From the UHGV virus genome UHGV-0385297: DNA of 64,000 nt; one strand, given 5' to 3'. Source of the stretch: a virus. The notes under the pieces are model-generated. The model saw nothing but the letters and a program-made list of their open reading frames with translations. It made no database searches and was not told where the DNA came from. Of the stretch, positions 16,339 to 53,645 are shown in pieces. Both the position numbers and the translations under genes were made by a program. How positions within the stretch are numbered: position 1 is the stretch's first letter; every line of letters begins with the position of its first letter.

Positions 16339-16366
16339 GGAGAATATATTATCAGGAGGTATGGAA

Positions 16367-22946: not shown

Positions 22947-23366
22947 ATGAAAAATGTATATCCTGTATTCTTTACAAAAACAAATGAAGATATATTAGTT
23001 GAAGTTCCAGATTTTGGAATTTTAACAGAAGGTAAGGATATGAATGATGCCATGAATATGGCACGAGACGCAATTGAATTAAAATGTGTATCAATGGAAG
23101 ATGATAAAGAAGAAATTCCAACACCATCTGAACTTAAAGAATTAAATCCGGCAAATGGAACCTTTGCAGACGATGGAGAAACCGTGGTCTCATTTGTAGA
23201 TATTGATTCTACATTATATAGAAAGAAAATTGATACAAAAACTGTAAGAAGAAATGTTGCCTTACCAAGCTGGTTAAATTATGCTGCGGATCAAGCAGGA
23301 ATTAACGTGTCACGGATTTTACAGGAAGCACTTATGAGAACATTAAAAGTGGAGAATAGGATGTAG
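22947..23366 (+). CDS. hicB: HicB-family antitoxin
   Basis: 139 aa; N-terminal YPVFFTK..ILVEVPDFGILTEGKDMNDAMNMARDAIEL matches the HicB fold pattern; C-terminal RHH-like region; immediately downstream of hicA. Confidence 0.75.
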   Translation: MKNVYPVFFTKTNEDILVEVPDFGILTEGKDMNDAMNMARDAIELKCVSMEDDKEEIPTPSELKELNPANGTFADDGETVVSFVDIDSTLYRKKIDTKTVRRNVALPSWLNYAADQAGINVSRILQEALMRTLKVENRM

Positions 23367-24188: not shown

Positions 24189-25196
24189 ATGATTATGGAA
24201 GAGAAAAGTAGATATGCAACAAAGAAAAAAGGTAAAACAGAAGTTCAGCCATTATGGAATATGGAAGATATTAAAGCGGTTATAGAATGGTTTGAGAAAA
24301 AAGAAGATTGGGATGGATATTTTATCACCATGTTAGAGCTTCTTCTTGGTAGACGTATTGGTGATACTATCTCTATGAAGTGGTCTGATCTGTATTATGA
24401 AAACGGAAAGAGAAAAGAAGCAATTAACACTATTGTAGAGCAGAAGACAGGTAAAGTCACTGAACTGCCAGTAAGTCATATGACATATGAAGCAATGGAT
24501 ATTTATTTGGACCATACCGGCATTAATCCAATGCAGCATTATGATGAGTTTATTTTTAAATATGAAGCGAAAACTGCATGGGTTCAGCGTTATGATAATC
24601 CTGTGTATGATAATACAGACATAGAAGAATGGTGCAGATTCTTAGGAAAGGATTTTACGGAAGATCGTAAACAGAAAATTTTAAAGGATTTTGAAAAGCA
24701 AAAGGAGTATAAAACATTAGGTGGTTATTTGTATTATGAAGTAGAATGGAATGACATTGTAAAGTGGCAGTCTGATGATTATAGGAAGAAACTAAAACAG
24801 GCTGCGAAAGCTATTGGTATCACAACTCCAGTCAGTACGCATAGCCTTCGGAAGTCGCTAGGATACTGGGTGTATAAAATGCATATGTTCGATCCTAACT
24901 GTTTGCTGACATTACAGAAGCTCTTTAATCATGCAGATCTTCAGACAACTATAATTTATATTGGTTTAGTGGAGGAACAGAAGAGAAGATATTTGGAAGA
25001 TCATGGAGAGTTCATTAAGAACGTCCTGGCTGGCAAGGGAGATGAAATCATCAAAAACATGCCGGTCATTTCATTAAAATCAAACGACTTTGGAAATGTA
25101 ATTATGAATGTTATCAAGGGAATGCAGGAAGGCAAAGAAGCAGTTGAGGTTTACCAGATTGCTATTAACATGGCAAATGAGAAGCGAATTGCGTAA
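24189..25196 (+). CDS. int: tyrosine recombinase / phage integrase
   Basis: C-terminal catalytic signature HSLRKSLGYWVY...LFNHADLQTTIIYIG (H-x-x-R ... Y nucleophile); 335 aa. Confidence 0.8.
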   Translation: MIMEEKSRYATKKKGKTEVQPLWNMEDIKAVIEWFEKKEDWDGYFITMLELLLGRRIGDTISMKWSDLYYENGKRKEAINTIVEQKTGKVTELPVSHMTYEAMDIYLDHTGINPMQHYDEFIFKYEAKTAWVQRYDNPVYDNTDIEEWCRFLGKDFTEDRKQKILKDFEKQKEYKTLGGYLYYEVEWNDIVKWQSDDYRKKLKQAAKAIGITTPVSTHSLRKSLGYWVYKMHMFDPNCLLTLQKLFNHADLQTTIIYIGLVEEQKRRYLEDHGEFIKNVLAGKGDEIIKNMPVISLKSNDFGNVIMNVIKGMQEGKEAVEVYQIAINMANEKRIA

Positions 25197-25815: not shown

Positions 25816-25861
25816 AAAATTGTTCAAAGAAATGAATACTAAAGGAAAGGAGGATGCAGAA

Positions 25862-26221
25862 GTGGAAGGCGGTTATAAGAAGTTTGATGTAGTATTAGTA
25901 GATTTTGGTGAAGAAATATTAGCTGGCGAACAAGGTGGCATTAGACCGGCAGTGATTGTACAGAATAATATAGGAAATAGGTATAGTGTTTCTACGGTTG
26001 TGATGCCGTTTACGTCACAACCCAAAAGTTTAAAGCAGTCTACGCATTCTCTTTTTCCTGCGAATGAAAAATATGGTTTAACAAAAGACTCCTATCTTTT
26101 AGGAGAATGTATTAGACAGGCTTCTGAACGCAGAATTATAAAAAAAATGGGAACCATTTCTGACAATGCTGGTAGAGAAGAAGTAAAAAGAGTTTACTTC
26201 TCAAATTGGGGAAATGACTAG
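25862..26221 (+). CDS. mazF: MazF/EndoA (PemK-family) endoribonuclease toxin homolog
   Basis: GGYKKFDVVLVDFGEE..GEQGGIRPAVIVQNNIGNRYSVSTVVMPFTSQ matches Bacillus EndoA [40 protein letters not shown]; GTG 25862 after AGGAGG; the listed TTG start at 25787 is the -35 box; ATG 25832 is an alternative start. Confidence 0.8.
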   Translation: MEGGYKKFDVVLVDFGEEILAGEQGGIRPAVIVQNNIGNRYSVSTVVMPFTSQPKSLKQSTHSLFPANEKYGLTKDSYLLGECIRQASERRIIKKMGTISDNAGREEVKRVYFSNWGND

Positions 26222-28412: not shown

Positions 28413-30671
28413 ATGGGGAAAGTAGAAAAAATAAATCTGAATGAAAAACAGATGGAATTAGTTACATATTATTCTGAAAATGATATGGCGAGATTAAAAC
28501 GGATTTGTAATCCAATCATTAATATGAAGAACGTAGATCAGAAGGATTATGATGACTTGTACAGTGATGCACTGAAAGTTCTTCTGGAAAGTGTTCAGAC
28601 ATTTGATGAAACAGCAGATTGTTCCTTTAATACATTTCTTACAGGAAATATTAAACGGTCATTCTATGATTGGAGCCGTGATCAGCTGACTTGGAAGCGG
28701 TGCAACCTGGAATATGAAACAGATGAAAATGGAGAGATTAAAAAAGATAAGAATGGAAAACCAATAAAAAAGAAAGTCTATGATGTTTCTATGGATGTTC
28801 CATTGGAAGATGGATCTGATTTAAGAGAAAAAATCCCGTCCAATTTCAGTGTAGAGACAGAACTTGGATTAAATGGAGATGATACTGTAGAAAAGGTAAA
28901 TATACTTCTTGATAGTATGCCACGGTTACAGAAGCAAATTACTATTTTGAAAATGAGGAAAGTTCCTGTAGAAAAAATTAAGAAGATCTTAAATATATCG
29001 CAAAGCGATTATGAAAACGCAGTAGAGCGGATTAAGAGAAATGAAAATATGGAAATGTTTTTAAAAGACACGAAATATAATATGGAGGAATATAATATGA
29101 AAGACAGAGTAATTGCTATTAGCGAATCCGAAGATTACAGAATGGACAAATTACCAATGTTCACATTATTGCAGCAGAAAAAAGATGGTGACATTAACTG
29201 TAAATACATTTTACAGAGAAAACCATTTCAGTGGTCAGAAGAAGAAGCGAATCGTTATTTCTGTAGAATATTAAGTTCTCTTCCTGTTCCTGAAATCGTT
29301 TTATGTGAGCAAAAAGTAAAGGAATTGATTATTGCATATTTAATTGATGGTTTACAGCGTTTATCTTATGCGGAGGCATTTAGAAATAATCGTATTAAAA
29401 TTGGAAGTGTAGGTGCAGAAAGACACTTAATTGAATATAGAGAATATTCTTTAGACGAAAACGGAAATCGAATTTTAGATGACAACGGATTTCCAACCTA
29501 CGAATTAAAAATATGTGATGTTATTGGAAAATACTACAAAGATCTTCCTGATGAATTAAAAAAGAGATTTGATGTATTTAATTTCAATGTGACTAAGTTT
29601 TTTAACTGCACGGATCAGCAAATTGCGGATCACCTTCGCGACTACAACAACCACTCATCTATGAACAAGGAGCAGTTGGGACTGACCAAGATTACTACCG
29701 TAACAGCTGGGAAAATTAAGAAAATCTCTGAGAAGAATATGTTTTTCAAAAATTGCTGTAAAATCACTACAACTAATGAGACTAAAGGTAAACTGGAACG
29801 TGTAGTTGCCGAAGCAATTATGCTTTTGTTCCATAAGGACGATTGGAAAGCTAAATTGGAAAATGCCTATAAGTATGTAGATGAAAATGCAACAGACGAA
29901 GAGTTTGAACAGCTTAATTCTGATTTAAACCGTTTGGAATTAGCAATTGGAGAAAATAATAAGGAAGTTACCAAGTTATTTACTCCAGCTGCTATTCCTA
30001 TGTGGGTGGCGGTATTCAATGAGTTTACAAAGTATAACATTGAAGATAGCAGATTTGTAGACTTCCTTAATGCATATGTAACCGATTTAAAGGATCGTAC
30101 AGTAGATGGTGTAAGCATGAAAACTTTTAAATCAGAACAGAGTAAAAAGAGAACTACCATCATGGGAAAGATCAATCTGTTGGTTACTCTTATGAAAGAT
30201 TATTTACATATTGAAGATACAGAAGAAACAGAAAATACATATGAAGAAACAACTGATGAAAAAGTAACTGAAAACGAGAATAATACAGTAGAAGAGACAA
30301 CAGAAGATAATGTTACTACAGAAGAAATGGAATCAGTAGTAACTGAATCACAGTCAGAAGAAGATCATGAGTTACAGTTCGTAAAAGAGGTAGCTGATCC
30401 AAATGTAGAACAGGAAGATATTGAACTGTATAAGGATTTTATTGATGACTATCTTAAGTTAGACTCCTGTGTATACAAAGTTGGTATGCCGGTATTGTTA
30501 GCACTTATGGCATATGCTTGTAATGCAGAGAAAGACGAAGAGTTTAGTGAATGGCTCAATGAAATGGAAAAACAGCATAGAATTTTCACAGGTTCAGAGA
30601 AAGATAATTATGAGAAGTTGAAAGCAGAATTTCTTCAGTTTTTAGATTCTCATAACAATAAAGCAGCATAA
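28413..30671 (+). CDS. fusion protein: N-terminal ECF-like sigma-70 domain (regions 2 and 4) + DUF262/ParB-like domain + acidic C-terminal tail
   Basis: region-2-like DLYSDALKVLLESVQTFDETADCSFNTFLTGNIKRSFYDWSRDQ; region-4-like LQKQITILKMRKVPVEKIKKILNISQSDYENAVERIKRN; then YILQRKPFQWSEEEANRYFCRILSSLPVPEIVL...AYLIDGLQRLSYAEAF (DUF262 QR..W / DGQQR signature); T/E-rich tail; one uninterrupted 752-aa ORF. Confidence 0.65.
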   Translation: MGKVEKINLNEKQMELVTYYSENDMARLKRICNPIINMKNVDQKDYDDLYSDALKVLLESVQTFDETADCSFNTFLTGNIKRSFYDWSRDQLTWKRCNLEYETDENGEIKKDKNGKPIKKKVYDVSMDVPLEDGSDLREKIPSNFSVETELGLNGDDTVEKVNILLDSMPRLQKQITILKMRKVPVEKIKKILNISQSDYENAVERIKRNENMEMFLKDTKYNMEEYNMKDRVIAISESEDYRMDKLPMFTLLQQKKDGDINCKYILQRKPFQWSEEEANRYFCRILSSLPVPEIVLCEQKVKELIIAYLIDGLQRLSYAEAFRNNRIKIGSVGAERHLIEYREYSLDENGNRILDDNGFPTYELKICDVIGKYYKDLPDELKKRFDVFNFNVTKFFNCTDQQIADHLRDYNNHSSMNKEQLGLTKITTVTAGKIKKISEKNMFFKNCCKITTTNETKGKLERVVAEAIMLLFHKDDWKAKLENAYKYVDENATDEEFEQLNSDLNRLELAIGENNKEVTKLFTPAAIPMWVAVFNEFTKYNIEDSRFVDFLNAYVTDLKDRTVDGVSMKTFKSEQSKKRTTIMGKINLLVTLMKDYLHIEDTEETENTYEETTDEKVTENENNTVEETTEDNVTTEEMESVVTESQSEEDHELQFVKEVADPNVEQEDIELYKDFIDDYLKLDSCVYKVGMPVLLALMAYACNAEKDEEFSEWLNEMEKQHRIFTGSEKDNYEKLKAEFLQFLDSHNNKAA

Positions 30672-32515: not shown

Positions 32516-34579
32516 ATGGATGGATTTATGGAGTTTAAGGAAGCTTTACAGGAACATTTCAATGAAATGCAGAAGGATGCAGACAAATTATTCGAGGTGT
32601 TAGTAGATAAGGATGAGCTGTGGAATACTTATTTAAACAGTTTTCCAGCGGGTACTAACCCTATCTACCGTGAGAGAACTGAACATGATTGTAGCTGCTG
32701 TAGACATTTTATTAAGAATATTGGCGTGGCAGTAGTTATTAAGGATAACCAGATGCATACAATTTGGGAACTTAAATTAAATGACCCTACATATCAGACA
32801 GTTGCTAATGCGCTGGATAAATTCGTAAAAGCTCATGCAGTTTCCGATATTTATTTGAGTAAGTTCAAAAAGATTGGAACAGATTATAATTTTGAAGAAA
32901 TCAATGGTAAAGCTCATAGATGGGATCATTTCTTCTTAGAGCTTCCAGATAAGTTTGTAAATCGTACCAGTTCTTCTAACGAAGAAATCAAAGGTCAGTT
33001 CCGTGATACCAGAAATGTGTTTAAGCGTTCTTTAGACGAAATTACTATGGATGCAGTTGATACGGTATTAGAGTTGATCAATTCTAATACTTTATATAAA
33101 GGTGAGGAATGGAAAACTGCTCTGACTGAGTTCAAGAAATACAAAAAGGAATATGACAAGTTAACAACAGCAACAGATAAGGCTCTGTACACTTGGGAAA
33201 AATCCATTAAAGCAGGCATGGCGATTGGTCGTATTAGAAACCATTCTATTGGCACTCTGCTTGTAAATATCAGTGAAGATATGGATCTCGATTTAGCAGT
33301 TAAAAAATATGAGCAGATTGTAGCCCCCGCCAGCTATAAGCGCCCAAAGGCAATTTTCACTAAAAAGATGTTAGAGGACGCAAAGAAGACCATTACTGAG
33401 CTTGGATATATGGATTCATTACAGAGAAGATTTGCAACTTTGAATGATATTTCAGTAAATAATGTTCTGTTCTCAAATAAGAGTGCTGCAAGAAGAATGG
33501 TTGGTGCAGATGATATTTTTGGCCAGATGGAAAAGGATGTTACTGTAAATCCTAAGAAGTTCTCTAAAGTAGAAGAGATTTCTGCACAGGATTTTATTGA
33601 CAAGGTGCTTCCAACTGCAAAAGAAATCGAGGCATTTGTAGAGAATAAACATGAGAAGAACTTTGTATCGTTGATCGCACCAGTAAATCCAGATGCCAAA
33701 ACTATGTTTAAATGGAACAACGGTTTATCCTGGGCGTATAGTGGCAATATTACCGATTCAGACATGAAACAGAATGTTAAAGCTGCAGGAGGTAATGTTA
33801 ACGGTGTGCTTAGATTTTCCATCATGTGGAATGAGGCGCAAAATGATAATAGCGATCTTGATGCTCATTGTATTGAACCAGATGGTAATGAAATCTATTT
33901 TAGCAATTGCAGGAAACCACAGATGTCTAGGATGGGTGGGCAGCTTGATATTGACATTACTAGACCAATGGAACAGATGAAAGGTAAACCTTCAGTAGAG
34001 AATATTACATGGGCAGATATGTCACGTATGAAACCAGGCGTTTATAAGTTTTTTGTTAATCAGTATGCAGCGAGAGGAAGTAAGGGATTCAAGGCAGAAG
34101 TTGAGTTTAATGGTGAGATTTATGCATTTGAATACAATCAGCCTGTGCATGGTGATGTTCAGGTTGCAGAAGTAACACTTGATGCCAATGGTAACTTCTC
34201 AATTAAAGAGAAATTAGCAGGCAATTCATCTATTTCGAGTCGTGAGATTTGGGGTGTAAATACAAATCAGTTTGTCCCTGTATCAGTAATTAGTTACAGT
34301 CCAAATTACTTTGATGAGCAGGACGGAATTGGTCATAGACATTTATTTTTCTTCTTGAAAGATTGTGTAAATACTGAAGAACCAAATGGATTTTATCTTG
34401 AATTTTTAGACAATGATTTAATGAAACATAAGAGAGTATTTGAAGCATTAGGTGCTAAGTGTCATGTAGAAGATACAGACGATCAGTTATCAGGCATTGG
34501 TTTTTCTATGACTAAGAGAGCGGAACTTGTAATCAAAGTAAAAGGTGCAACTGAGCGTATTATGAAGATTAAATTTTAA
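32516..34579 (+). CDS. large hypothetical protein (687 aa) with HDCSCCRH cluster
   Basis: long uninterrupted ORF, coupled start; no family recognised by eye. Confidence 0.6.
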   Translation: MDGFMEFKEALQEHFNEMQKDADKLFEVLVDKDELWNTYLNSFPAGTNPIYRERTEHDCSCCRHFIKNIGVAVVIKDNQMHTIWELKLNDPTYQTVANALDKFVKAHAVSDIYLSKFKKIGTDYNFEEINGKAHRWDHFFLELPDKFVNRTSSSNEEIKGQFRDTRNVFKRSLDEITMDAVDTVLELINSNTLYKGEEWKTALTEFKKYKKEYDKLTTATDKALYTWEKSIKAGMAIGRIRNHSIGTLLVNISEDMDLDLAVKKYEQIVAPASYKRPKAIFTKKMLEDAKKTITELGYMDSLQRRFATLNDISVNNVLFSNKSAARRMVGADDIFGQMEKDVTVNPKKFSKVEEISAQDFIDKVLPTAKEIEAFVENKHEKNFVSLIAPVNPDAKTMFKWNNGLSWAYSGNITDSDMKQNVKAAGGNVNGVLRFSIMWNEAQNDNSDLDAHCIEPDGNEIYFSNCRKPQMSRMGGQLDIDITRPMEQMKGKPSVENITWADMSRMKPGVYKFFVNQYAARGSKGFKAEVEFNGEIYAFEYNQPVHGDVQVAEVTLDANGNFSIKEKLAGNSSISSREIWGVNTNQFVPVSVISYSPNYFDEQDGIGHRHLFFFLKDCVNTEEPNGFYLEFLDNDLMKHKRVFEALGAKCHVEDTDDQLSGIGFSMTKRAELVIKVKGATERIMKIKF

Positions 34580-34599
34580 AAATAAAGGAGAATATTATT

Positions 34600-34986
34600 A
34601 TGACAACCAATGAATTATTTGTAAAAGCAACCCGTGAGAATTTTCAGTTCCCATTTAGAGGGATGGTAAATGTTATTGATCTTTGGAGCTTATCATTAAC
34701 CAATCTGGATTCTGTGTTTAAGGCGCTTAACGCAGAAGTAAAGAAAACCGAAGAAGAAAGTCTTCTGCATACTAAGTCAAAGGAAGATGAAGAACTTTCC
34801 GAAAAGATTGAGATTGTAAAATATATTGTCGGTGTCAAGCTGGAAGAAATTAAGGCAAGAGAAGATGCCAAGAAAAATAGGGAAATGAAACAAAGACTTC
34901 TGGAAATCAAAGCAAAGAGACAGGATGCAGCGTTAGAGAATATGTCTGATGAAGAGTTGGATAAAGCTCTTGCTGAATTAGATTAA
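34600..34986 (+). CDS. hypothetical coiled-coil protein
   Basis: 128-aa ORF after AAGGAG RBS. Confidence 0.5.
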   Translation: MTTNELFVKATRENFQFPFRGMVNVIDLWSLSLTNLDSVFKALNAEVKKTEEESLLHTKSKEDEELSEKIEIVKYIVGVKLEEIKAREDAKKNREMKQRLLEIKAKRQDAALENMSDEELDKALAELD

Positions 34987-35079
34987 TAGATTTTATCGAG
35001 TTAGATTAACAATACACTAGGGTTGGTTGGTGTCATAACTAATCAACCTATTTCTAAAAATATAGCAAAGGAAAACATG

Positions 35080-35706
35080 ATTATGACAAATTATGAGAAG
35101 TATAAAGATGAGATCGATAAAATCTGGAATGATGGAAAGGTTATTGGTGTCACCGAAGATTGTAAGGTAACAAGCTGTGATGAAATTTTGTCTTGCAATG
35201 AATGTATTTTTAATGAAGAGTGTGATTTAAAATCACAGAAATGGCTCGTATCTGAATACAAAGATCTAGCAGAAGATGTAGATTGGAGCAAAGTAATAGT
35301 AGATACACCCGTATTAGTAAGGGATTATGAGACTGATAAATGGAATCCAAGATATTTTGCTGGGATTAATGAGGATGGAAATGTTATTGCATTTGACAGC
35401 GGCGCCACATCTTGGTCAGATGACGGAGAAAACCTTACTGTAAATTGGAAACAAGCCAAACTTGCTAATCCAGACGATTTGAAGAAATCTGACTTTCATC
35501 AGGAGAAGAAAGACTATACTGACAATGAATTAATCGATATGCTGGTAGCAAATTATGTTGAAAAAGCAGAAGATGATACATATTTCAGTCGGGAAAATTA
35601 TAAAGAGTTTCTTGTATCAGTATATTGGTTCTGGAAAGCTAATATGAACAATTTCAATAAAGAGAAAATTGTCAAAGCAGTTAAATTAATGTTAGAAGTA
35701 GAATAG
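35080..35706 (+). CDS. hypothetical protein
   Basis: MIMTNYEKY... after AAGGAAAAC; about 208 aa. Confidence 0.5.
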   Translation: MMTNYEKYKDEIDKIWNDGKVIGVTEDCKVTSCDEILSCNECIFNEECDLKSQKWLVSEYKDLAEDVDWSKVIVDTPVLVRDYETDKWNPRYFAGINEDGNVIAFDSGATSWSDDGENLTVNWKQAKLANPDDLKKSDFHQEKKDYTDNELIDMLVANYVEKAEDDTYFSRENYKEFLVSVYWFWKANMNNFNKEKIVKAVKLMLEVE

Positions 35707-35715
35707 GAGACCATC

Positions 35716-35889
35716 ATGAGAAAAGATAAAAAACGATTAATTGGTTCTGGATTATATCTTTGTGGATTTGTTTCGTATGTTACTTTTATGGGATTATTGA
35801 ACAAGTGTGGAGCTAATGCTGGATTATATGGATTAGGTGCTTCCATTAGTGCAGTTGTTTTTTGCGGTGCATTGTATAGTTTACATTAG
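35716..35889 (+). CDS. small membrane protein (two predicted TM helices)
   Basis: 57 aa MRKDKKRLIGSGLYLCGFVSYVTFMGLL...GLGASISAVVFCGALYSLH; GGAGACC RBS. Confidence 0.45.
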   Translation: MRKDKKRLIGSGLYLCGFVSYVTFMGLLNKCGANAGLYGLGASISAVVFCGALYSLH

Positions 35890-35898
35890 GAGGTTTAT

Positions 35899-36246
35899 AT
35901 GGGTAAAGTCGGGAATGTAGAAGTTGAATGGAGCGGTGGATATCCATGTTTGTGCCATGGCAAATGGACATTAAAAGTAGATGGAAGAGACGTTTCAGAT
36001 AAGATTCCAGAAGATCTGAGAAAAGATGACATGAATACATATAAATCATATCGAAAATGGCATTTTAATGAAGATTATCGTGAAGAATGGGAATATTATA
36101 ATGACGGTCTGAGATGTGAAGATTGGATTAAAGTCAATGGCTATTGGCTCAATAAAATCGTTGCAGATAAAGATATTCAGAAGTGTGTATTTTATGCAAT
36201 CAATGAGGAAGATTGGAGACATAGTAGCTGTGGCGGATGTGTCTAA
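35899..36246 (+). CDS. hypothetical Cys-containing protein
   Basis: 115-aa ORF after AGGAGG RBS. Confidence 0.5.
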   Translation: MGKVGNVEVEWSGGYPCLCHGKWTLKVDGRDVSDKIPEDLRKDDMNTYKSYRKWHFNEDYREEWEYYNDGLRCEDWIKVNGYWLNKIVADKDIQKCVFYAINEEDWRHSSCGGCV

Positions 36247-36285
36247 AAAGGTAAAAAACAAATTTTAATATAATAAAAGGAGAAA

Positions 36286-36903
36286 ATGATTATGATGAAC
36301 AATTTTTTAAACGGTATGTTTGGTAAAGTAGGAAGTGGTATGTGTAGACTTTCCATGAATGGTGGCATTGCAGTTAAAACATCAAATGGATATAAAACAT
36401 ACAATGTGAAGACTGGCAAACTTACAAACTGTAGCAATTTTGTATTTGATATTGGTGAAGAGTTTTTCTTTGTTATTCCAACTAATAAAGTAGAAGCAGG
36501 AGATATTATCCTGGTTAATGGTAAGCCCAAATGTGTTATCGAAGCAGATAAAACTAAAATTACAGTTATTAATTATGAAGATTCTACTGTGGAAACTATT
36601 CTTCCAGAAAGACATGTTTTTATGGGTAATACATATTTCTATGGAAAGATTGTATCTATGTTTGGCAGTGATATTCTTAAGGGAAAGAAAGGCACAAATA
36701 ATATCTTTAAATATATGATGCTGTCTCAGATGATGAAGAGTGATGGAAATGCTTCTAGTATGATGAGTGGTAATGGTATGAGTTCTATGCTTCCACTTAT
36801 GATGATGGGTGGTAATATGGGTAATATGTTTGACGGATTATTCGATTTTGATATGGACGTTGATACAGAAAATGATGAAGATGTAGAAGAGGAGGATGCA
36901 TAA
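36286..36903 (+). CDS. hypothetical protein with Met/Gly-rich low-complexity region and acidic tail
   Basis: 205-aa ORF; ...MMSGNGMSSMLPLMMMGGNMGNMFDGLFDFDMD... Confidence 0.5.
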   Translation: MIMMNNFLNGMFGKVGSGMCRLSMNGGIAVKTSNGYKTYNVKTGKLTNCSNFVFDIGEEFFFVIPTNKVEAGDIILVNGKPKCVIEADKTKITVINYEDSTVETILPERHVFMGNTYFYGKIVSMFGSDILKGKKGTNNIFKYMMLSQMMKSDGNASSMMSGNGMSSMLPLMMMGGNMGNMFDGLFDFDMDVDTENDEDVEEEDA

Positions 36904-37783
36904 TATGGGATGTGGTTCATGGACAAGAGATAGTTATGTAGGTTATTCAACAGCAAAAGGTATGAGTGTTTCAACGGATGGTATGATTAGCGGTTCTTAT
37001 TCTAATCAGGATATGTTTAAGGCAAGGAATATTGATTCTGCACTTGATCCTAAGAATGTCATTAGAGAGTGTTGCGATACAGAGGAACATCCAAACACAA
37101 TTCCTGTTATTCTTGCACTTGATGTAACTGGTTCTATGGGACAGGCTGCTGTTGAAGTGGCAAAGAAGTTAAATGTAATTATGACTAAGTTATATGAAAA
37201 GGTTACAGATGTTGAGTTCCTTATCATGGGTATTGGTGATTTGGCTTGTGATAGCTGTCCAATTCAGGCTTCACAGTTTGAATCAGATATTCGTATTGCT
37301 GAACAGCTTGATAAGATTTATTTTGAATTTGGCGGTGGTGGAAACAGTTATGAATCCTATACAGCAGCATGGTATTTCGGTTCTCGTCACACAAAGCTTG
37401 ATTGTTTAAATCGTGGAAGAAAAGGAATTATTATTACAATGGGAGATGAGCAGTTAAATCCATATCTTCCATTTAAGGGTAGAGGTCATGGTTTATCAGA
37501 GGTAACAGGTGATAATCTTCAGTCTGATGTAGAGACTAAGGATTTATACGAAGAGGCTTCTCAAAAGTTTAACATTTATCATTTAGATGTAAATCATACT
37601 CGCAGATGGGATGAAGAAGAAATTGAGAAGTCTTACAAGAAGTATCTTGATGATACACACTTTAGAAGAGTAACTATGGATAGTATTACAAATGAGATTG
37701 TAGATATTATTGTTAGTGAAGCAGAGAATAATGTTACAGATATAGTTACTACACTTTCTAATTCAGAAGGAATTACTTGGTAG
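36896..37783 (+). CDS. von Willebrand factor A (vWA) domain protein
   Basis: MIDAS motif IPVILALDVTGSMGQ (DxTGS), further G/T/D positions typical of the vWA fold; 295 aa. Confidence 0.65.
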   Translation: MHNMGCGSWTRDSYVGYSTAKGMSVSTDGMISGSYSNQDMFKARNIDSALDPKNVIRECCDTEEHPNTIPVILALDVTGSMGQAAVEVAKKLNVIMTKLYEKVTDVEFLIMGIGDLACDSCPIQASQFESDIRIAEQLDKIYFEFGGGGNSYESYTAAWYFGSRHTKLDCLNRGRKGIIITMGDEQLNPYLPFKGRGHGLSEVTGDNLQSDVETKDLYEEASQKFNIYHLDVNHTRRWDEEEIEKSYKKYLDDTHFRRVTMDSITNEIVDIIVSEAENNVTDIVTTLSNSEGITW

Positions 37784-37800
37784 GATAGGAGATTTAAGAG

Positions 37801-38898
37801 ATGAAAGACATTAAGATTGTGATAGGTGCTAATTTTGGAGATTGTGGAAAAGGATTAATGACAGATTATTTCTCACAGAAACCTAATAGTATTGTTGTTT
37901 GTTCAAATGGTGGTGCTCAGAGAGGACATACCGTAACAACGCCTGATGGAATCAGACATGTCTTTCATCATTTTGGATCTGGAACATTCACCCATGCAAG
38001 TACATATTTATCTGAGGATTTTATTGTTAATCCAATTATTTTTAAGCAGGAATATGATGAGTTGATGAAATTAGGATATATCCCGAATGTTTATATCAAT
38101 CAAGATTGTATGTTGACTACACCTTTTGATATGATGGCAAATCAGATTATAGAGGAAAATCGTGGAAAAAATAAACATGGTAGTTGTGGCTTGGGAATTT
38201 TTGAAACTATCAAAAGATATAAAGCCGGTATAACTGATGTAGATGATCATATCAGGGAATATTACTTAGAACAATTTGAAAGAGAGAATATTATATTAAC
38301 AGATGAATGGTCAAGAATATTCCTTGATAATGGTATATTTGAACACTTTTTAGATGATTGGGATTTTATGAATAATCACTCATTGGCTATATCAGATAAT
38401 TATTTCTTAAATCAGTTTGATAATATTGTATTTGAAGCTGCACAAGGTTTATTGCTTGATCAGAATAACACAGAATATTTTCCACATCTAACACCATCTA
38501 ATACAGGTATTAAAAATCCCAAGAGAATAATTGAAAATGGTGAATGGAATGAAGAGATAAACATTGAAACTTGTTATGTGTCTCGTACATATCTTACACG
38601 GCATGGTACAGGAAAATTTCCATCAGAGTGTGATAAAAATCAGATCAACAAATATATTTTTGATAAAACTAATATACCAAATCCATTCCAGGATACATTG
38701 AGATATGGAACATTAGATTTAAAAGAATTGTATAACAGATGCAGTAAGGATGTAGGAGATTTTGGAAATAAGAAATCATTAGCACTTATGCATTGCAATG
38801 AATGTGACTGGGATGACGAAGAATTGATTAGCCTATTTAAAGGTTGGAATATATATTATTCTGATGGAGAAACAAGAGAAGATATTAGATTGAGGTAA
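37801..38898 (+). CDS. adenylosuccinate synthetase (PurA) family protein, short form (PurZ-type candidate)
   Basis: VIGANFGDCGKGLMTDYF..VVCSNGGAQRGHTV matches PurA P-loop GTQWGDEGKGKIVDLL..RYQGGHNAGHTL; HGSCGLGI ~ GTTGRGIGP; FEAAQGLLLDQNNTEY ~ FEGAQGTLLDIDHGTY; VSRTYLTRHGTGKFP ~ STRVGAGPFP; 365 aa versus about 430 for bacterial PurA. Confidence 0.75.
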   Translation: MKDIKIVIGANFGDCGKGLMTDYFSQKPNSIVVCSNGGAQRGHTVTTPDGIRHVFHHFGSGTFTHASTYLSEDFIVNPIIFKQEYDELMKLGYIPNVYINQDCMLTTPFDMMANQIIEENRGKNKHGSCGLGIFETIKRYKAGITDVDDHIREYYLEQFERENIILTDEWSRIFLDNGIFEHFLDDWDFMNNHSLAISDNYFLNQFDNIVFEAAQGLLLDQNNTEYFPHLTPSNTGIKNPKRIIENGEWNEEINIETCYVSRTYLTRHGTGKFPSECDKNQINKYIFDKTNIPNPFQDTLRYGTLDLKELYNRCSKDVGDFGNKKSLALMHCNECDWDDEELISLFKGWNIYYSDGETREDIRLR

Positions 38899-38902
38899 AA
38901 AC

Positions 38903-39370
38903 ATGAGATTAAGTGAAATTGCAGAATGGATAGTAAAAAATAATCCAGACTGTTGTATGGTGCCAAATTATACTGTTGTTAATGGTTGCAGAGAAGACTG
39001 GTATGAAGAATCATTAATCGAACCACTTATGAACCATTGGATGTACGAAGATTTAGGTTTATGTGATTGTGGTTGTCCTGAATATACATATGAAGTAATC
39101 AGAAAATTTTTACATATTCGTCAGGATTGGCGAGAAAATAAACTTGAATATACCGAAGTTCTTAATAGGTATAAAAGAGATTTACATGTTGATGACAATG
39201 ACAACAATCAATTTGGATTGCTACAGTTCATGATGTATATTTTAGATGAACATGAATTCATAGAGCATGGTAGTAGTATCACAGGTTGTTGGCTTACCGA
39301 AAAAGGTGAAATGCTATTGATTACTTTAGATGCATGGCATGAAAAGAATATGAAAACAGAAGCCGATTAA
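38903..39370 (+). CDS. hypothetical protein (CDCGCPEY motif)
   Basis: 155-aa ORF immediately after the PurA-like gene. Confidence 0.5.
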   Translation: MRLSEIAEWIVKNNPDCCMVPNYTVVNGCREDWYEESLIEPLMNHWMYEDLGLCDCGCPEYTYEVIRKFLHIRQDWRENKLEYTEVLNRYKRDLHVDDNDNNQFGLLQFMMYILDEHEFIEHGSSITGCWLTEKGEMLLITLDAWHEKNMKTEAD

Positions 39371-39395
39371 ATGTTGGTTTCAATAGGAGAATCTA

Positions 39396-39758
39396 ATGGA
39401 TATATTATTCGGTTACGACTGTATAGATAGTTGTGATTGCGATAAAAGTAGCAGTTGCAAATATGCTAAACATAAATTTATTCCATTTAAAATTTCACAT
39501 TTACTATTTGTTTATCCAAGATGTATCAAATTGAGTGGCACAAATAAATGTCCATACAATAAAACAAGAAACTATACATGTGCAAGTTGTGCCAATAGTA
39601 ATTCATTCGAAGAATGTGATATTCCTTTTAATGAGAGAAAACCATATATTCCTAAAGATAGGTGGAAGAAATATAGTAGATGTGGTAGTTATAAAAAATG
39701 TAAATGGGCAGATGACTGTTTATATGATGGTGTGTATGTAAGCAGAAATCAGCTCTAA
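39396..39758 (+). CDS. hypothetical Cys-rich protein
   Basis: 120 aa with about 18 Cys in CxxC/CxC arrangements. Confidence 0.5.
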   Translation: MDILFGYDCIDSCDCDKSSSCKYAKHKFIPFKISHLLFVYPRCIKLSGTNKCPYNKTRNYTCASCANSNSFEECDIPFNERKPYIPKDRWKKYSRCGSYKKCKWADDCLYDGVYVSRNQL

Positions 39759-40089
39759 CTTGTTTAGAGTGTTAATTATTATCTACTACTTATTATATCT
39801 ACTATTTATATCTGTGGCAGTTCTTGCAAAATTTTACATGAACTTCATCTGAGTTTTCAAAAGTTATTGTCAAAAAATGTAATAACATCCGCCATAGGAA
39901 AATATGATTATTCCGCTGCGGCGAAGCCGCCTATCCGGAACAATGGTTTCCTCATTCCGGACAGGTGGTGTAAAAGCACCCGTAATATTCAAAAATACAA
40001 AAGGAATAACAGAAAGGATATGCACCCGAAGAACCGAACTATATAGATATGTCGGTATTCGGTGCGGCAAGTTAAGATAGGAGTTGGCT

Positions 40090-40419
40090 ATGTTATTAAC
40101 AAATAGATTTCCAAACGAAAATCGCTCAGGTCTTCAAGAATACTATTGTGACTTAACACGAGAAATAGATCGGCTTCTTGGATTATCACCAGATCAATAC
40201 TGGAAGCATTATATTCTGGCAGATAGCACAATGCTAAAGGACAAGTGTCTTGCAATTAGAATTCCTGGCGGTACAGTTGGTGGAATTTGGATTGATGATG
40301 AGAATATTATTACGAAGGTATTTGTAGACACTGAGTATTATGTTATTGAAGAATATCCAATAGATATTAATGAAAAACTGGCACATTTTGTAGGAGAGAA
40401 GATTGAATTTGTTGATTAA
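40090..40419 (+). CDS. hypothetical protein
   Basis: ATG at 40090 after AGGAG RBS. Confidence 0.5.
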   Translation: MLLTNRFPNENRSGLQEYYCDLTREIDRLLGLSPDQYWKHYILADSTMLKDKCLAIRIPGGTVGGIWIDDENIITKVFVDTEYYVIEEYPIDINEKLAHFVGEKIEFVD

Positions 40420-40434
40420 GAGAAAGGAATAAAT

Positions 40435-41205
40435 ATGGGAACAGATATTACTATGTTTGCAGAAGTACGTAAAAATAAAAAATGGACAAAGGTAGGAAGT
40501 GTATTTAAAAATCCTTGGTATCGCGAAGATAGAGTAATTGACGAATGGAATCGACCATATACTGATCGACCTTATGATAGTCGAAATTATGATTTATTTG
40601 CAATTCTTGCAGATGTAAGAAATGGAACTGGTTTCGCTGGATGTAAGACTTCTTATGGGTTTAATCCAATTAGTATGCCCAAAGGACTGCCAGAAGATAT
40701 TACTGCTGAAGTAAAAGAACTTTTATGGGGTGATGGATATGCAAACTCATATTATACATTAAAGGAATTGAAAGATTATGATTGGGATCAGAAAGTCATT
40801 CATGTAGGTGTTATTAGTGAAGCTCAGTATATAGAAATGAAAAGAACAGGAAAGAATCCAGATAGTTGGTCTGGCAATGTTTCTGGTTGGGATATTGTTG
40901 TAGTGTCGGCAGATACGATGGATAAGATTTTAAATAAAACCATCAGTAGGAATAATCGTGTTAAATATTATGTACAAGTGGATTTTAAATCAATTACATA
41001 TAGAGAGTGTTGTGACAATTTTTTAGAAAACACAATTCCAGCGTTAGAAAAACTTGTTCCTGATGGTGGTACAGAAGAAGATATACGGATTATCTTGACT
41101 TTGTACTGGATGATTATAGTTTGGAAGATGCAGATTATGATGATCAGCCGTTTAAGATTGAAGAAATTGAGAAAGAATAATGGAAATAAAAGATATAAGG
41201 TATGA
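40435..41205 (+). CDS. hypothetical protein (possible frameshift near C-terminus)
   Basis: 256-aa ORF; last ~40 aa hydrophobic and basic; an alternative frame from about 41062 reads DYLDFVLDDYSLEDADYDDQPFKIEEIEKE and ends in a TAATG overlap with the next gene. Confidence 0.5.
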   Translation: MGTDITMFAEVRKNKKWTKVGSVFKNPWYREDRVIDEWNRPYTDRPYDSRNYDLFAILADVRNGTGFAGCKTSYGFNPISMPKGLPEDITAEVKELLWGDGYANSYYTLKELKDYDWDQKVIHVGVISEAQYIEMKRTGKNPDSWSGNVSGWDIVVVSADTMDKILNKTISRNNRVKYYVQVDFKSITYRECCDNFLENTIPALEKLVPDGGTEEDIRIILTLYWMIIVWKMQIMMISRLRLKKLRKNNGNKRYKV

Positions 41206-47816: not shown

Positions 47817-48737
47817 TTGGAACAGAAAAAATTTATGGATATCGCCCGTATCAAAGAGGATACGGAGTTAACGGCAGCAAATACAAATGGTTTTCATGTA
47901 GGGGATCATGTAGTAATTCAGACTAAATTTGACGGAGCAAATGCATCTTTCAGATACAATGAAGAAACAGGGGAACTTGACACTTTTTCTCGCAAGCAGC
48001 CACTTACATATGACAGTACATTATCTGGTTTTTGGAATTTTGTAAAAACACTGGATGCAGATAAATTTAAGAAATATCCAAATTATGTATTCTTTGGAGA
48101 ATGGGCTGTAAAAAATAAGATTATTTATAAACCAGAATATAGAAAAATTTGGCTTATGTATGATGTTTATGACGTAGAAAATAAATGTTATTTGTCTCAG
48201 TCAGAAGTTAAAAGGTTAGCTGAAGAGTTTGGATTTACATATATCAATACGTGGTATGATGGAGAATTTATTTCTTGGGAACATGTTAAAAGCTTCTTAG
48301 ATAAAGTAGTTTATTCTGAGTCTATCGAAGAAGGGGTAGTGATTAAAAATATGACAAGGCTTAATGACCCTAATTCAAGAACACCATTTGTATTGAAAAT
48401 TGTAAACGATCAGTTCTCAGAAGTAATGAAGCAAAAACCAAAAGAAATAAATCCAGAAGTCGAAGCAGCAAAGCAAAAAGCACAGGATATTGTTAATCAG
48501 ATTGTAACACGTAGACGAGTTGAAAAAGAGATTTATAAAATGCGAGATGAGGGTATCCTCCCTGAAAAAATTGAACCAATAGATATGAAACTTGTAGCAC
48601 AGAATCTTCCAAAAAGAATTTTCAATGATTGTGTTAAGGAAGAAAAAGAAATGGTAGAAACAGCTGGTGAATATTTTAGTAAGATGTGTGGATCTACAGC
48701 AATGAAACACGCAAAAAATATTATTTTAGGGAATTAA
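47817..48737 (+). CDS. Rnl2-family RNA ligase (nucleotidyltransferase)
   Basis: motif I KFDGAN (KxDG), III FFGEW, IV YDVYDV, V EGVVIK, VI KIVNDQ, in Rnl2 order and spacing; start either TTG 47817 or ATG 47835. Confidence 0.75.
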   Translation: MEQKKFMDIARIKEDTELTAANTNGFHVGDHVVIQTKFDGANASFRYNEETGELDTFSRKQPLTYDSTLSGFWNFVKTLDADKFKKYPNYVFFGEWAVKNKIIYKPEYRKIWLMYDVYDVENKCYLSQSEVKRLAEEFGFTYINTWYDGEFISWEHVKSFLDKVVYSESIEEGVVIKNMTRLNDPNSRTPFVLKIVNDQFSEVMKQKPKEINPEVEAAKQKAQDIVNQIVTRRRVEKEIYKMRDEGILPEKIEPIDMKLVAQNLPKRIFNDCVKEEKEMVETAGEYFSKMCGSTAMKHAKNIILGN

Positions 48738-48739
48738 AT

Positions 48740-50062
48740 ATGAGTTGGAATCCAGTATTAAATAAAACTATTGAAATAAAGAACGAATATATAAAGAAAT
48801 TTGGATATATTACATATGATTATTTAGATGGTTATACAAATAAATCTCAAACCTGTTTGGAAAGATGGGTAGAAGAGTTAAATAAACTTGAGCCAATTGA
48901 TCAATATTCTGAGTATACTGATTTACTTTCTTGCTTAGAGTTGAATCAGTATAATGATTTTATTTTGTTAAGATACGCAAGATACAGTAACGTATATGAT
49001 GGAGAAATTGATAATTCAGGTGAAGATTTTTGGGATAGATATAATGGATTTTATAGAGAATGTAGAAGTATTGTTATAGATATTAGAAATGAATGCATTA
49101 TTCTTTGTCCATTTAAAAAGTTTTTCAATATAAATGAACTAGAAGAAACCAATTTAGAGAATATTCAAAGTAGAATTAGTAATGCAAAAACAGTTGAGTT
49201 CTCTGATAAATTGGACGGTTCTATGCAGACAGCTACTTGGTACGATAATCGAATTGTTATGGCAGGTAGCCAAGCAATCAATCCTGATAATTCATGGAGA
49301 TTACAAGATGGATATCGGATGATCCGTGAGTTGTCTGGATATGAAGAAATGTTAAAAAATAATATTGGACTTACATTTATTTTTGAGTATATTTCATTAA
49401 AAGATGCTCATGTAGTTAAATATGCAAAAGAACAAGAAGGATTATATCTTATTGGTATAAGAAGCAATGAATTTGGAACAGAATATGATTATAAAACTGT
49501 TCTTGATATGGCGAACATTTATAATATTCCAACAACAAAACTTTTCGATAAAACATTAGACAAGATTATGAATGAATTAGATGATAAGTCTTCCAATGAG
49601 GCTGAAGGTTTTGTTGTCAACATTGATGGCTATAAAGTAAAAGTCAAATATAATGATTATGTATATATCCATAAAGCTCTATCTAAACTTTCTTCAATTA
49701 ATCTAATTATCCGTTCTATCGCAGATGACAAATATGACGATCTTCTTTCAAAACTTCCTATTGCATACCATGAAAACGTAAAAAGAGTAGCAGCTATTGT
49801 AGTGAAATATATTGAATATACTGAAAAAGAAATAAGAGAATATTATAATAAGGCACCAAAATATGATCAAAAAGAATTTATGGTATATGTCTCAAATAAT
49901 ATTCCTAAAAAGTATCAAGCATATTGCAGAGAGTTATATTTTGGTCGTGAGATTAATGTTGTTAGAAGCGGAAATGATAAGCAACCACATTATAAAAAAC
50001 TAAAAGATATGGGTGTTAAAAACTATTCTATAATATTTACTCAGGAGGAAAATGATGAATAA
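48740..50062 (+). CDS. ATP-dependent RNA ligase (second KxDG nucleotidyltransferase)
   Basis: motif I SDKLDGSM, motif V EGFVVNIDGYKVKVK; ATG 48740 overlaps the upstream stop; about 440 aa. Confidence 0.65.
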   Translation: MSWNPVLNKTIEIKNEYIKKFGYITYDYLDGYTNKSQTCLERWVEELNKLEPIDQYSEYTDLLSCLELNQYNDFILLRYARYSNVYDGEIDNSGEDFWDRYNGFYRECRSIVIDIRNECIILCPFKKFFNINELEETNLENIQSRISNAKTVEFSDKLDGSMQTATWYDNRIVMAGSQAINPDNSWRLQDGYRMIRELSGYEEMLKNNIGLTFIFEYISLKDAHVVKYAKEQEGLYLIGIRSNEFGTEYDYKTVLDMANIYNIPTTKLFDKTLDKIMNELDDKSSNEAEGFVVNIDGYKVKVKYNDYVYIHKALSKLSSINLIIRSIADDKYDDLLSKLPIAYHENVKRVAAIVVKYIEYTEKEIREYYNKAPKYDQKEFMVYVSNNIPKKYQAYCRELYFGREINVVRSGNDKQPHYKKLKDMGVKNYSIIFTQEENDE

Positions 50063-50987
50063 ACCAACACTGACGGTATTCGTTGGGCTAAGTGGTAGTG
50101 GTAAGTCAACCATTGCCACTCAGATTGCCAACGAAAATTCAAACACAGTAATTGTATCATCAGATGCAATTCGTGAGGAATTAACAGGTAATTACGAAGA
50201 CCAAGAACATAACGAAGAAGTGTTTAAGATTTTTCACAATAGAATTCGTAAGAATTTGGAAAATAAAAAGAATGTAATAGCAGATGCAACCAACATTACT
50301 ATGAAGTCACGCAGAGCAATTATAACGAAAGTAAATGGATTAGATGTTGAGAAAATCTGTTATTTGATCCCAAAACCATATGAACAGTGCAAGATTGATA
50401 ATAAGAATAGATTACATCCTGTTCCAGACGAAGTAATAGACAAACAGATCATGCGGTTTCAAGTGCCATTCTATGAAGAAAATTTCGATAAAATTATTAT
50501 TCGTAAAGATGATAGTTGGGAAGAATACAAAATTGGAAGTATTAATCTGTTTTTGGCAATGTTTGGATTTGATCAGAAAAACCCACATCATAACATGACA
50601 TTAGATGATCATTGCATGAATACATATAACTTGTTCTGCAATAAAATTCCGCATAAAACATTATTAAATCTCGAATATGTTAATGGGTATGCAATGGGAG
50701 CAAAACTACACGATTTTGGTAAAATCATGGTTCAGACATTTGATGAAAACGGTATTGCTCACTACTATGGACATTCTAGTACAGGATCGTATTTTATTCT
50801 TTCTCAAATGGTAAAACCTCTTGTATGGACAGACGATATGTTATTAGATTGTTGTTTTCTTATCAACTATCATATGATGCCGTTCAATTGGACAAGTGAT
50901 GAAGCAAATAAACGTTGGAAGAAAAGATTTGGAGAATATAAATATCAGATGCTATTAGATTTCAATGAATGCGATAAGGCGAGGTAA
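50052..50987 (+). CDS. P-loop kinase fused to HD-domain phosphohydrolase (polynucleotide kinase-phosphatase-like RNA healing enzyme)
   Basis: Walker A VGLSGSGKSTIA at N-terminus; C-terminal HHNMTLDDH...LHDFGK (H...HD); overlapping start ATGATGA. Confidence 0.65.
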   Translation: MMNKPTLTVFVGLSGSGKSTIATQIANENSNTVIVSSDAIREELTGNYEDQEHNEEVFKIFHNRIRKNLENKKNVIADATNITMKSRRAIITKVNGLDVEKICYLIPKPYEQCKIDNKNRLHPVPDEVIDKQIMRFQVPFYEENFDKIIIRKDDSWEEYKIGSINLFLAMFGFDQKNPHHNMTLDDHCMNTYNLFCNKIPHKTLLNLEYVNGYAMGAKLHDFGKIMVQTFDENGIAHYYGHSSTGSYFILSQMVKPLVWTDDMLLDCCFLINYHMMPFNWTSDEANKRWKKRFGEYKYQMLLDFNECDKAR

Positions 50988-53429: not shown

Positions 53430-53645
53430 ATGAAACAGACATTAAAACCGTGTCCATTTTGTGGTAGTGATAAGTTAAAGATAGATAATCGTAAAGGAAC
53501 ATATTCTATTAGATGTAATAGATGCCACGCAAGAGGTTGTACGAGTAGTATTTGGAGCGACAATACTACAATCAGCGAAGAGGATGCTATCAATAAAGCA
53601 GTTGAATTATGGAACAGGAGAGTGGTTTTAGATGGAGCTAAATAA
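53430..53645 (+). CDS. Lar-family zinc-finger protein (restriction alleviation-like)
   Basis: MKQTLKPCPFCGSDKLKIDNRKGTYSIRCNRCHARGCT pattern typical of Lar/Rz-like zinc ribbons. Confidence 0.55.
   Translation: MKQTLKPCPFCGSDKLKIDNRKGTYSIRCNRCHARGCTSSIWSDNTTISEEDAINKAVELWNRRVVLDGAK

Follow-up and report, generated by a model that had tools for sequence, protein, structure and literature searches.

A vWA/MIDAS and PurA-like gene cassette of a gut phage and the association of its family with NAD+/ADP-ribose genes

The 64,000-nucleotide stretch of UHGV virus genome UHGV-0385297 analysed here over its full length (the window) carries, at positions 36286-38898, three genes that appear to constitute a self-contained, horizontally exchanged cassette: p205, a protein with a von Willebrand factor A (vWA) fold, and a PurA-like P-loop ligase. 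The product of ORF 37801-38898 is a genuine member of the PurA (adenylosuccinate synthetase) superfamily, and the cassette family shows a strong and unexpected association with NAD and ADP-ribose genes. PurA homologs of phages are currently read either as PurZ, which belongs to genomes containing 2-aminoadenine (Z-genomes), or as host-like PurA. The cassette family adds a third group, which is much larger (>2,300 clusters built at 50% identity). What sets it apart is an apparently rebuilt substrate pocket, together with a vWA partner that is invariable and a third subunit that is modular. Present in large phages as well as in bacterial chromosomes, it is a real, widespread, and apparently uncharacterised variant of a known enzyme family.

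The reading favoured here, with a rough probability of 0.45, is that the vWA and PurA-like proteins act as a complex that carries out a PurA-type ligation with a changed nucleophile and serves nucleotide homeostasis linked to NAD+ and ADP-ribose. The gene linkage, the active-site residues, and the neighbouring genes that bear on this reading are set out below, together with three other explanations of the same data.

Gene content and spread of the cassette

The five ORFs named in an earlier, sequence-only reading of this region are all present on the + strand, and p205, vWA, and PurA-like follow one another with tight junctions and strong ribosome-binding sites. That reading had placed the PurA-like gene in a tight operon directly after a vWA/MIDAS protein and a Met/Gly-rich acidic protein, and this arrangement is confirmed: the ORFs are as described, the metal ion-dependent adhesion site (MIDAS) motif is intact, and the PurA-like ribosome-binding site (TAGGAGAT) lies 17 nt past the vWA stop codon. 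The true start of vWA is probably 36905 rather than 36896, because a ribosome-binding site (GAGGAGGA) lies upstream and both close homologs and independent gene calls give a protein of 292 aa. For p205, the likely start is 36292 (203 aa); a ribosome-binding site (AAAGGAGAA) is found upstream, and an independent gene call also gives 203 aa.

Of 80 related viral contigs, all carry the PurA-like gene, 79 carry vWA, and 78 carry p205, which in those 78 stands directly upstream of vWA. The Cys-containing ORFs downstream, which had been listed alongside these genes, do exist; however, they were found in only 4 and 2 of the same loci and thus lie outside the module, and the upstream p687 gene was found in 8. 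Moreover, the window and the complete 176-kb genome of a related phage (MT835469) share nucleotide similarity only over 36292-38873, at 81.6% identity, which argues that the three genes travel as a mosaic cassette. The earlier suggestion of a possible new module is upheld, in the form of a PurA-like gene, a vWA gene, and a third partner, with neither DatZ nor MazZ. As further members, p687 (DUF8224), p155, and p120 were rejected as poorly linked, and the genes downstream of the bacterial loci (an HtrA-like protease, ornithine decarboxylase, and others) as heterogeneous.

The linkage extends well beyond phages. In 80 diverse genome-derived loci (from Lachnospiraceae, Ruminococcus, Clostridia, Cyanobacteria, Alphaproteobacteria, Competibacter, and Chlorobiota), the PurA-like gene is immediately preceded by vWA on the same strand wherever the upstream sequence suffices; the single exception is a truncated ORF. 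Thus, the pair is found in this order across Bacillota, Cyanobacteria, Alpha- and Gammaproteobacteria, and Chlorobiota and in phages of four host groups. It is present in Rhizobium, Vibrio, and cluster C Mycobacterium phages, and the counts of phage records are equal for the two genes (202 for Mycobacterium, 10 for Rhizobium, and 6 for Vibrio). At locus L013:6915-7988, as also in L019, L025, L028, L029, L042, and L059, a gene of ~1 kb is inserted between the two; at L013 it encodes 357 aa with a treble-clef zinc finger (DUF4379), and it is probably a mobile or homing-type gene.

The vWA protein has the Rossmann-like fold of its namesake domain, and its MIDAS motif (DVTGS … TxGDE, with D76-x-T78-x-S80 as numbered from 36896) is intact; metal binding is predicted. 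In particular, D76, T78, S80, T181, G183, D184, and E185 are invariant or nearly so among its relatives, the downstream Thr and Asp are present, and many further acidic and polar residues, with R57 and E58 among them, are invariant. The protein belongs to PHROG 2971, its structural neighbours include integrins, BchD, and Rpn10, and ~8,000 relatives were scored in homology searches. It was not detected as vWA by Pfam, NCBIfam, or PDB-profile (family-profile) searches and is a highly divergent vWA subfamily. In cluster C mycobacteriophages, the vWA match often covers residues 4-177 only, with "HNH endonuclease" annotated beneath, and the version of phage Sauce is 595 aa long (BFVD A0A3G3M5V4); the gene there appears to carry an insertion that interrupts or extends it, perhaps an intein or a homing endonuclease.

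The third gene is the variable one. p205 consists of an N-terminal β-rich domain (~125 aa), a Met/Gly-rich low-complexity linker, and an acidic/aromatic C-terminal tip (…MFDGLFDFDMDVDTENDEDVEEEDA). It has no match in Pfam, PHROG, NCBIfam, or PADLOC, and the p205 and vWA family profiles gave nothing significant against PDB sequences; a weak resemblance of p205 to an intein/Hint domain (E 0.29) was not relied on. A p205 hidden Markov model (HMM) found no counterparts in Rhizobium, Vibrio, or Mycobacterium phages. Those of the Rhizobium and Vibrio phages, which have diverged too far for BLAST or an HMM, were recognised by position and architecture and then by alignment, and 10 columns are invariant across all members. 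In the genome-derived loci, the gene upstream of vWA takes two forms, one p205-like (Type A, 36 loci) and the other a J-domain pseudokinase (Type B, 32 loci). The Type B partner, of which gp251 of mycobacteriophage Cali is an example, is a protein of ~350 aa that joins a J-domain with its HPD motif to a protein-kinase-like domain without the catalytic Asp. At L134:8579-10159 (- strand), and likewise in L162 and L165, a J-pseudokinase occurs together with a long (~520 aa) p205-like protein, which is encoded on the opposite strand and has multiple zinc ribbons at its end.

The PurA-like enzyme and its active site

The PurA-like protein matches Pfam PF00709 (E 3.7e-34, over model positions 1-284 of 416 only) and PHROG 1211 (E 7e-66), and its AlphaFold2 model (pLDDT 96.6) resembles PurA structures in Foldseek comparisons (E ~1e-21, TM about 0.7). 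The motifs that had led to its assignment to the PurA family are all found, namely GDCGKG, GGAQRGH (in which His43 is E. coli His41), FEAAQG (in which Gln215 is Gln224), and TRHGTGKFP, and the assignment is borne out. With PurA of the bacterial type (for example that of E. coli, PDB 1ADE/1CG0) the protein shares the fold, the P-loop, the catalytic residues Asp13, Lys16, His41, and Gln224, and the FEGAQG and TRxGxGPFP motifs. However, identity to bacterial PurA is 18-20%, the window protein has a deletion of ~65 residues in its C-terminal region, and scores against the NCBIfam PurA models amount to about a quarter of the cutoffs: the equivalog cutoff of TIGR00184 is not passed (81.5 bits versus 395.6), and the best score, with NF002223, is 98.9 bits versus 402. 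The family comprises 2,366 representatives of 50%-identity clusters that match at E<=1e-30, with a median length of ~400 aa and a range of 365-470 aa. The 365 aa of the window protein are therefore a short, lineage-specific extreme rather than a family trait, and the length had been wrongly taken as a sign of a PurZ-type or archaeal enzyme. Judged by profile scores and residue content, the family would be a distinct clade that is neither PurZ nor canonical PurA.

Residues were compared in a 125-sequence alignment of 123 family members with E. coli PurA and phiVC8 PurZ (E. coli numbering is used unless stated otherwise). G12, D13, K16, G17, H41, E221, Q224, G225, T271, and G274 are invariant, so that the PurA fold is accompanied by all four catalytic residues in 123 of 123 relatives; T239 is kept in 121 and S414 in 107. 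In the window protein, D14, K17, H43, Q215, and T231 correspond to D13, K16, H41, Q224, and T239. Conservation of this kind suggests that phosphoryl-transfer chemistry on a ribonucleotide-type substrate is retained.

The residues around this core have changed. The 5'-phosphate ligands N38 and T129 are replaced by Gln (121 of 123) and Cys (115 of 123), respectively, and R143 shows no conservation. V273 has become His and T301 Gln in every one of the 123 relatives, and T300 is aromatic (F, Y, W, or H) in 117. R131, R303, and R304, which a reference cited in PMC8342488 places in the L-Asp site of E. coli PurA, are gone family-wide (R131 to M/V/L, R303 to S/T/other, and R304 to L/I/F). In the guanine motif K331-x-D333, K331 is replaced by His (87 of 123) or Cys (33 of 123), and the D333 column holds Asp in 67 and Asn in 55; the window protein has Asn and thus reads H-x-N in place of TKLD. 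In window numbering, the family-specific residues are Q40, C129, H268, an aromatic residue at 296, Q297, N291, and N294. Taken together, these substitutions suggest that the nucleophile pocket has probably been rebuilt and the 5'-phosphate environment altered. The two P-loop oddities pointed out earlier are both real but differ in reach: Cys in place of Glu14 is peculiar to the window lineage (2 of 123 relatives, versus Glu in 119), and Leu in place of Lys18 is a family-wide feature (101 of 123) that also occurs in PurZ. The view that the enzyme is non-canonical therefore stands.

An ordinary auxiliary adenylosuccinate synthetase is an unlikely explanation of this pattern. Such an enzyme would use IMP, L-Asp, and NTP to provide extra AMP/ATP for phage replication or NAD+ resynthesis, and vWA and the third partner would be regulatory or stabilising only. 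This would fit the conservation of the phosphotransfer and IMP-base residues D13, K16, H41, Q224, and T239 and the fact that bacterial PurA models are the best matches, and an arginine near R305/R306, which MAFFT places at R305 and HMMER at R306, is kept in 122 of 123. Likewise, an operon with PRPP-synthetase-like and Nampt genes, as described below, would fit supply of the adenylate half of NAD. Nevertheless, the explanation is weakened because the L-Asp-site arginines are lost and the partner is obligate: an ordinary PurA would need no invariably linked vWA protein across phyla. The low equivalog scores, the altered IMP 5'-phosphate ligands and guanine-specificity motif, and a site lined by new invariant His, Gln, and aromatic residues point in the same direction.

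The sequence-only reading had proposed a PurZ-type enzyme, and this label is not sustained. The hallmark of PurZ is a Ser that replaces the catalytic Asp13 of PurA near the 2-amino group of dGMP (S23 in S-2L PurZ; PMC8342488). In the alignment, phiVC8 PurZ has Ser in this column, whereas the window protein has Asp14 and Asp is present in 123 of 123 family members. The NCBIfam PurZ model NF038379 gives 40.8 bits versus a cutoff of 300, over the N-terminal part only, and is outscored by the bacterial PurA models (99 bits). Compared with PurZ and PurZ0 (phiVC8, S-2L; PDB 6FM1, 7ODX, 7VF6), identity is 14-17%, and fold similarity to PurZ, PurZ0, and archaeal PurA (Foldseek E ~1e-16 to 1e-17) is no closer than to PurA.

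The absence of DatZ and MazZ neighbours, already suspected from the sequence, was corroborated by searches with both profiles and proteins. Pfam scans of essentially all window ORFs revealed no HD, MazG, dUTPase, or DNA-polymerase domains, and tblastn with phiVC8 DatZ, DpoZ, and PurZ found nothing relevant in the window or in MT835469. Conversely, the known Z-phage groups lack a vWA gene. The PurA-like family is also common in bacterial chromosomes, where it lies near NAD+/ADP-ribose genes, which argues against a role in DNA base modification.

Thus, a PurZ-type or other enzyme that supplies phage DNA with a modified purine deoxynucleotide, be it 2-aminoadenine or an adenine substituted at N6, is highly improbable and largely excluded, and the residues and searches indicate that the cassette is probably no Z-genome pathway. 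What speaks for such a role is that PurZ is the only characterised phage PurA homolog, that the window protein is short and has Leu at position 18 in common with PurZ, and that the remodelled pocket could in principle take another amine and yield an N6-modified purine; in addition, a 2026 preprint places adenylosuccinate-synthetase genes within predicted modified-base operons. The window protein and PurZ are also alike in being phage-encoded members of the superfamily and, probably, in not being specific for GTP. The labels "2-aminooxy adenylosuccinate synthetase" and "PurA-like", carried in PHROG and GenBank by hundreds of mycobacteriophage, Rhizobium, and Vibrio phage genes, are accordingly no evidence of Z-DNA. 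In a 2026 survey of viral PF00709 homologs, all those outside PurZ and PurZ0 were classed as "other PurA homologs" (PMC12884076).

The NAD+/ADP-ribose neighbourhood and a possible function

In the 80 genome-derived loci, the fourth recurrent neighbour to emerge from ORF clustering is an NrtR gene (NUDIX and NrtR_WHD), which is adjacent in 45, is often transcribed divergently from the cassette, and also matches the NCBIfam "ADPR-responsive transcriptional repressor" family. NrtR regulators, which govern the synthesis and salvage of NAD, dissociate from DNA when they bind ADP-ribose (PMC2330246). A palindrome, TGTTATT-N4/5-AATAACA, was found in eight of the divergent gaps between NrtR and the J-pseudokinase gene of the module (L117, L119, L124, L131, L145, L147, L152, and L159), in Ruminococcus (Firmicutes) and in Competibacter/Contendobacter (Gammaproteobacteria). 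Over 1.1 Mb of loci it matches 14 times, versus ~7 expected by chance, and 8 of the 14 matches lie inside these gaps. It is a candidate NrtR operator, although it differs from the published NrtR core, GT-N7-AC.

Other genes of NAD+/ADP-ribose metabolism recur as well. In the cultured species Clostridium beijerinckii, a co-directional series runs NrtR–Prs-like–isochorismatase–Nampt-type PRTase–PARG–J-pseudokinase–vWA–PurA-like; in gut-phage relatives, the order is isochorismatase–p205–vWA–PurA-like–Prs-like–p140–Nampt-like. NAD-reconstitution-type genes (Prs/Adps-like and Nampt/Namat-like) thus stand beside the cassette both in C. beijerinckii and in L081-L086. Phages with an identical PurA-like protein encode, within 10 kb, a protein with a PARP catalytic domain (Pfam 1.2e-23) as well as SIR2 and isochorismatase; in a Vibrio phage, NADAR is encoded two genes upstream, and a Rhizobium phage has NMNAT/NUDIX and PRTase genes nearby. 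The PARP protein itself (L174:19331-20545, also in L175-L177, on contigs of 216-317 kb) is 404 aa long and combines WGR and PARP catalytic domains, and the SIR2 and isochorismatase genes lie near it in one of these phages. A phage-encoded PARP-like enzyme is unusual; the window departs from these relatives after ~44315 and is without their PARP.

On the favoured reading, the enzyme would keep the two steps of PurA, in which an oxygen is phosphorylated and then displaced by a nitrogen nucleophile, but this nucleophile, and perhaps the nucleotide too, would be other than free L-aspartate and IMP. Positioning of a ligand or regulation of the enzyme would fall to the MIDAS site and to the variable third subunit, with its acidic tail or as a J-domain pseudokinase. 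The outcome would be that adenine or NAD-type nucleotide pools stay usable while NAD+ is consumed. Depletion of NAD+ figures centrally in the immunity of bacteria to phages, and for the phage such an activity would serve during infection of hosts with NAD+-depleting or ADP-ribosylating immunity, plausibly as counter-defence.

A more specific proposal is that the pair is an NAD+/ADP-ribose-processing ligase that joins an ADP-ribose-type or pyridine nucleotide to a nitrogen nucleophile without charge, for instance nicotinamide or ammonia. It fits the pocket of aromatic, Gln, His, and Asn residues that replaces the carboxylate-binding arginines, the altered 5'-phosphate ligands, and the predicted placement of the gene under ADP-ribose-responsive NrtR control, but in its full detail it is improbable. 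If true, it would represent a new and widespread pathway that reconstitutes NAD+ or neutralises an ADP-ribose signal, one that phages would turn against NAD+-depleting immunity and bacteria would employ in NAD homeostasis.

Several points weigh against the favoured reading in general. The proposed reaction and its substrates are drawn from residue conservation and gene context, the obligate complex of vWA with the PurA-like protein is a predicted interaction, and that the new invariant residues cluster around the active site is deduced from their E. coli equivalents. MAFFT and HMMER disagree by one position at R305/R306; therefore, one carboxylate-binding arginine may survive, in which case the enzyme may still be able to use L-Asp. 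The loci were chosen by similarity to the window, at most 80 per scan, and some contigs of metagenome-assembled genomes (MAGs) are possibly mis-binned phages. Among the 80 closely related viral loci, only 10 have NAD-salvage genes within 8 kb, and some cellular copies of the cassette stand alone amid unrelated housekeeping genes. Finally, the window and MT835469 both lack genes for NrtR, Nampt, Prs-like, PARG, and PARP proteins, and the palindrome was not found in the window, so that for this phage the link to NAD is by homology only.

The complex could also be a machine that is not primarily metabolic, in which the PurA-like protein is an NTP-driven switch, or a modifier directed at proteins or nucleic acids, with a regulatory or anti-defence role. 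In such a machine, the MIDAS would grip an acidic ligand, such as the p205 tail or a host protein, and the J-domain or Met/Gly-rich partner would couple the complex to Hsp70-type chaperones or to a target of ADP-ribosylation. Acidic residues of partner proteins are the usual ligands of vWA/MIDAS domains, to which the structural neighbours named above belong, and both forms of the third partner would suit this role, one through its J-domain fused to a catalytically deficient kinase-like domain and the other through its disordered linker and conserved acidic/aromatic tip. Macromolecule-modifying enzymes (PARP, PARG, NADAR, and SIR2) are among the neighbours, and counter-defence genes are abundant in the window region. 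On the other hand, the catalytic Asp, His, and Gln and the nucleotide-monophosphate ligand T239 are strictly conserved, which speaks for nucleotide chemistry on small molecules. The two types of third partner have no conserved Lys or other evident acceptor residue in common, and a PADLOC scan of ten region proteins gave no match. This explanation is distinctly unlikely.

The favoured reading, that of a ligase serving NAD+-linked nucleotide homeostasis, can be set beside known phage pathways that restore NAD+. These pathways (NARP1-3) form a fast-moving field, to which the cassette would add a candidate counter-defence or NAD-homeostasis activity. Homologous cassettes lie within or adjoin genes of the kind found in NARP1 (Adps and Namat), NARP2 (Nampt and Nmnat), and NrtR-regulated prs-nadV operons, and, like NARP1 and NARP2, the cassette is phage-borne in accessory regions. 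In contrast to these systems, its protein families are different, no NARP1 or NARP2 genes were found in the window or in MT835469, and rebuilding of NAD is only a proposal. NARP3 (PnuC and NadR) is unrelated to it, and the NARP papers examined do not mention the cassette. A description of the vWA and PurA-like pairing or of its NAD link was likewise not found in openly accessible full-text literature, and neither the vWA partner nor the J-pseudokinase is covered by a model in the June 2026 release of NCBIfam. An NrtR-regulated operon of unknown function, nrtX-nrtY, was described by Rodionov et al. in 2008. In SEED, its genes are named a Band-7 protein (nrtX) and a PpnK-like protein, which would make it different from the vWA–PurA-like pair; the window, too, encodes an SPFH/Band-7 protein (Table 1).

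The cassette also recalls systems in which a vWA protein with an intact MIDAS is coupled to a P-loop NTPase, such as BchD-BchI Mg-chelatase, CbbO-CbbQ, NorD-NorQ, and the TerY-type vWA-kinase-phosphatase triads, the last of which resemble it further in that many cassette loci encode a kinase-fold protein. However, the NTPase of the cassette is a PurA-type ligase and not an AAA+ MoxR ATPase, and, unlike in the TerY-type triads, the kinase-fold partner lacks the catalytic Asp and has a J-domain, and a PP2C phosphatase is absent.

Other genes of the window

The window has a GC content of ~33%, nearly all of its genes lie on the + strand, and it has the appearance of a replication and accessory region from a large human-gut phage. 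Its products include a sliding clamp, a DnaB-type helicase, and an AAA_24 protein. Scans for promoters and terminators over 34500-40500 gave background levels and defined no unit boundaries. Table 1 lists the cassette genes and further features.

Table 1. Positions of the cassette genes and of further genes in the window
Feature	Position	Strand	Remarks
p205 (205 aa)	36286..36903	+	Likely start 36292; Met/Gly-rich acidic-tailed third partner, Type A
vWA-fold protein	36905..37783	+	Intact MIDAS; longest ORF from 36896
PurA-like P-loop ligase (365 aa)	37801..38898	+	PurA superfamily, putative distinct clade
C5 cytosine methylase	16361-17389		Counter-defence / toxin-antitoxin group
DarA_C	19059-19340		Counter-defence / toxin-antitoxin group
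HicB-like antitoxin	22947-23366		Counter-defence / toxin-antitoxin group
Integrase-family gene	24189-25196
PemK/MazF-like toxin	25832-26221		Counter-defence / toxin-antitoxin group
752-aa protein	28413-30671		Weak Sigma70 region 2 match near N-terminus (E 2.4e-5)
p687 (687 aa)	32516-34579		PHROG 1735 (E 1e-265); precomputed Pfam DUF8224
RNA-repair set	47835-50987		Rnl2-type RNA ligase, T4 Rnl1-type RNA ligase, AAA_33/KTI12-like kinase (Pnkp-like)
Lar	53430-53645		Counter-defence / toxin-antitoxin group
SPFH/Band-7 protein	56096-57079

By virtue of its DarA_C, Lar, C5-methylase, and RNA-repair genes, the region is of an accessory, counter-defence type. DarA_C is associated with defence against restriction and Lar with restriction alleviation, and RNA-repair sets typically counter anticodon nucleases. 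The p687 protein occurs widely among phages. Inspected by eye, the C-terminal part of p687 (…NDNSDLDAHCIEPDGNEIYFSN…GGQLDIDI…) is reminiscent of a TerD-like calcium-binding β-sandwich, which no model confirmed. The 752-aa protein could be a phage sigma-factor fusion.

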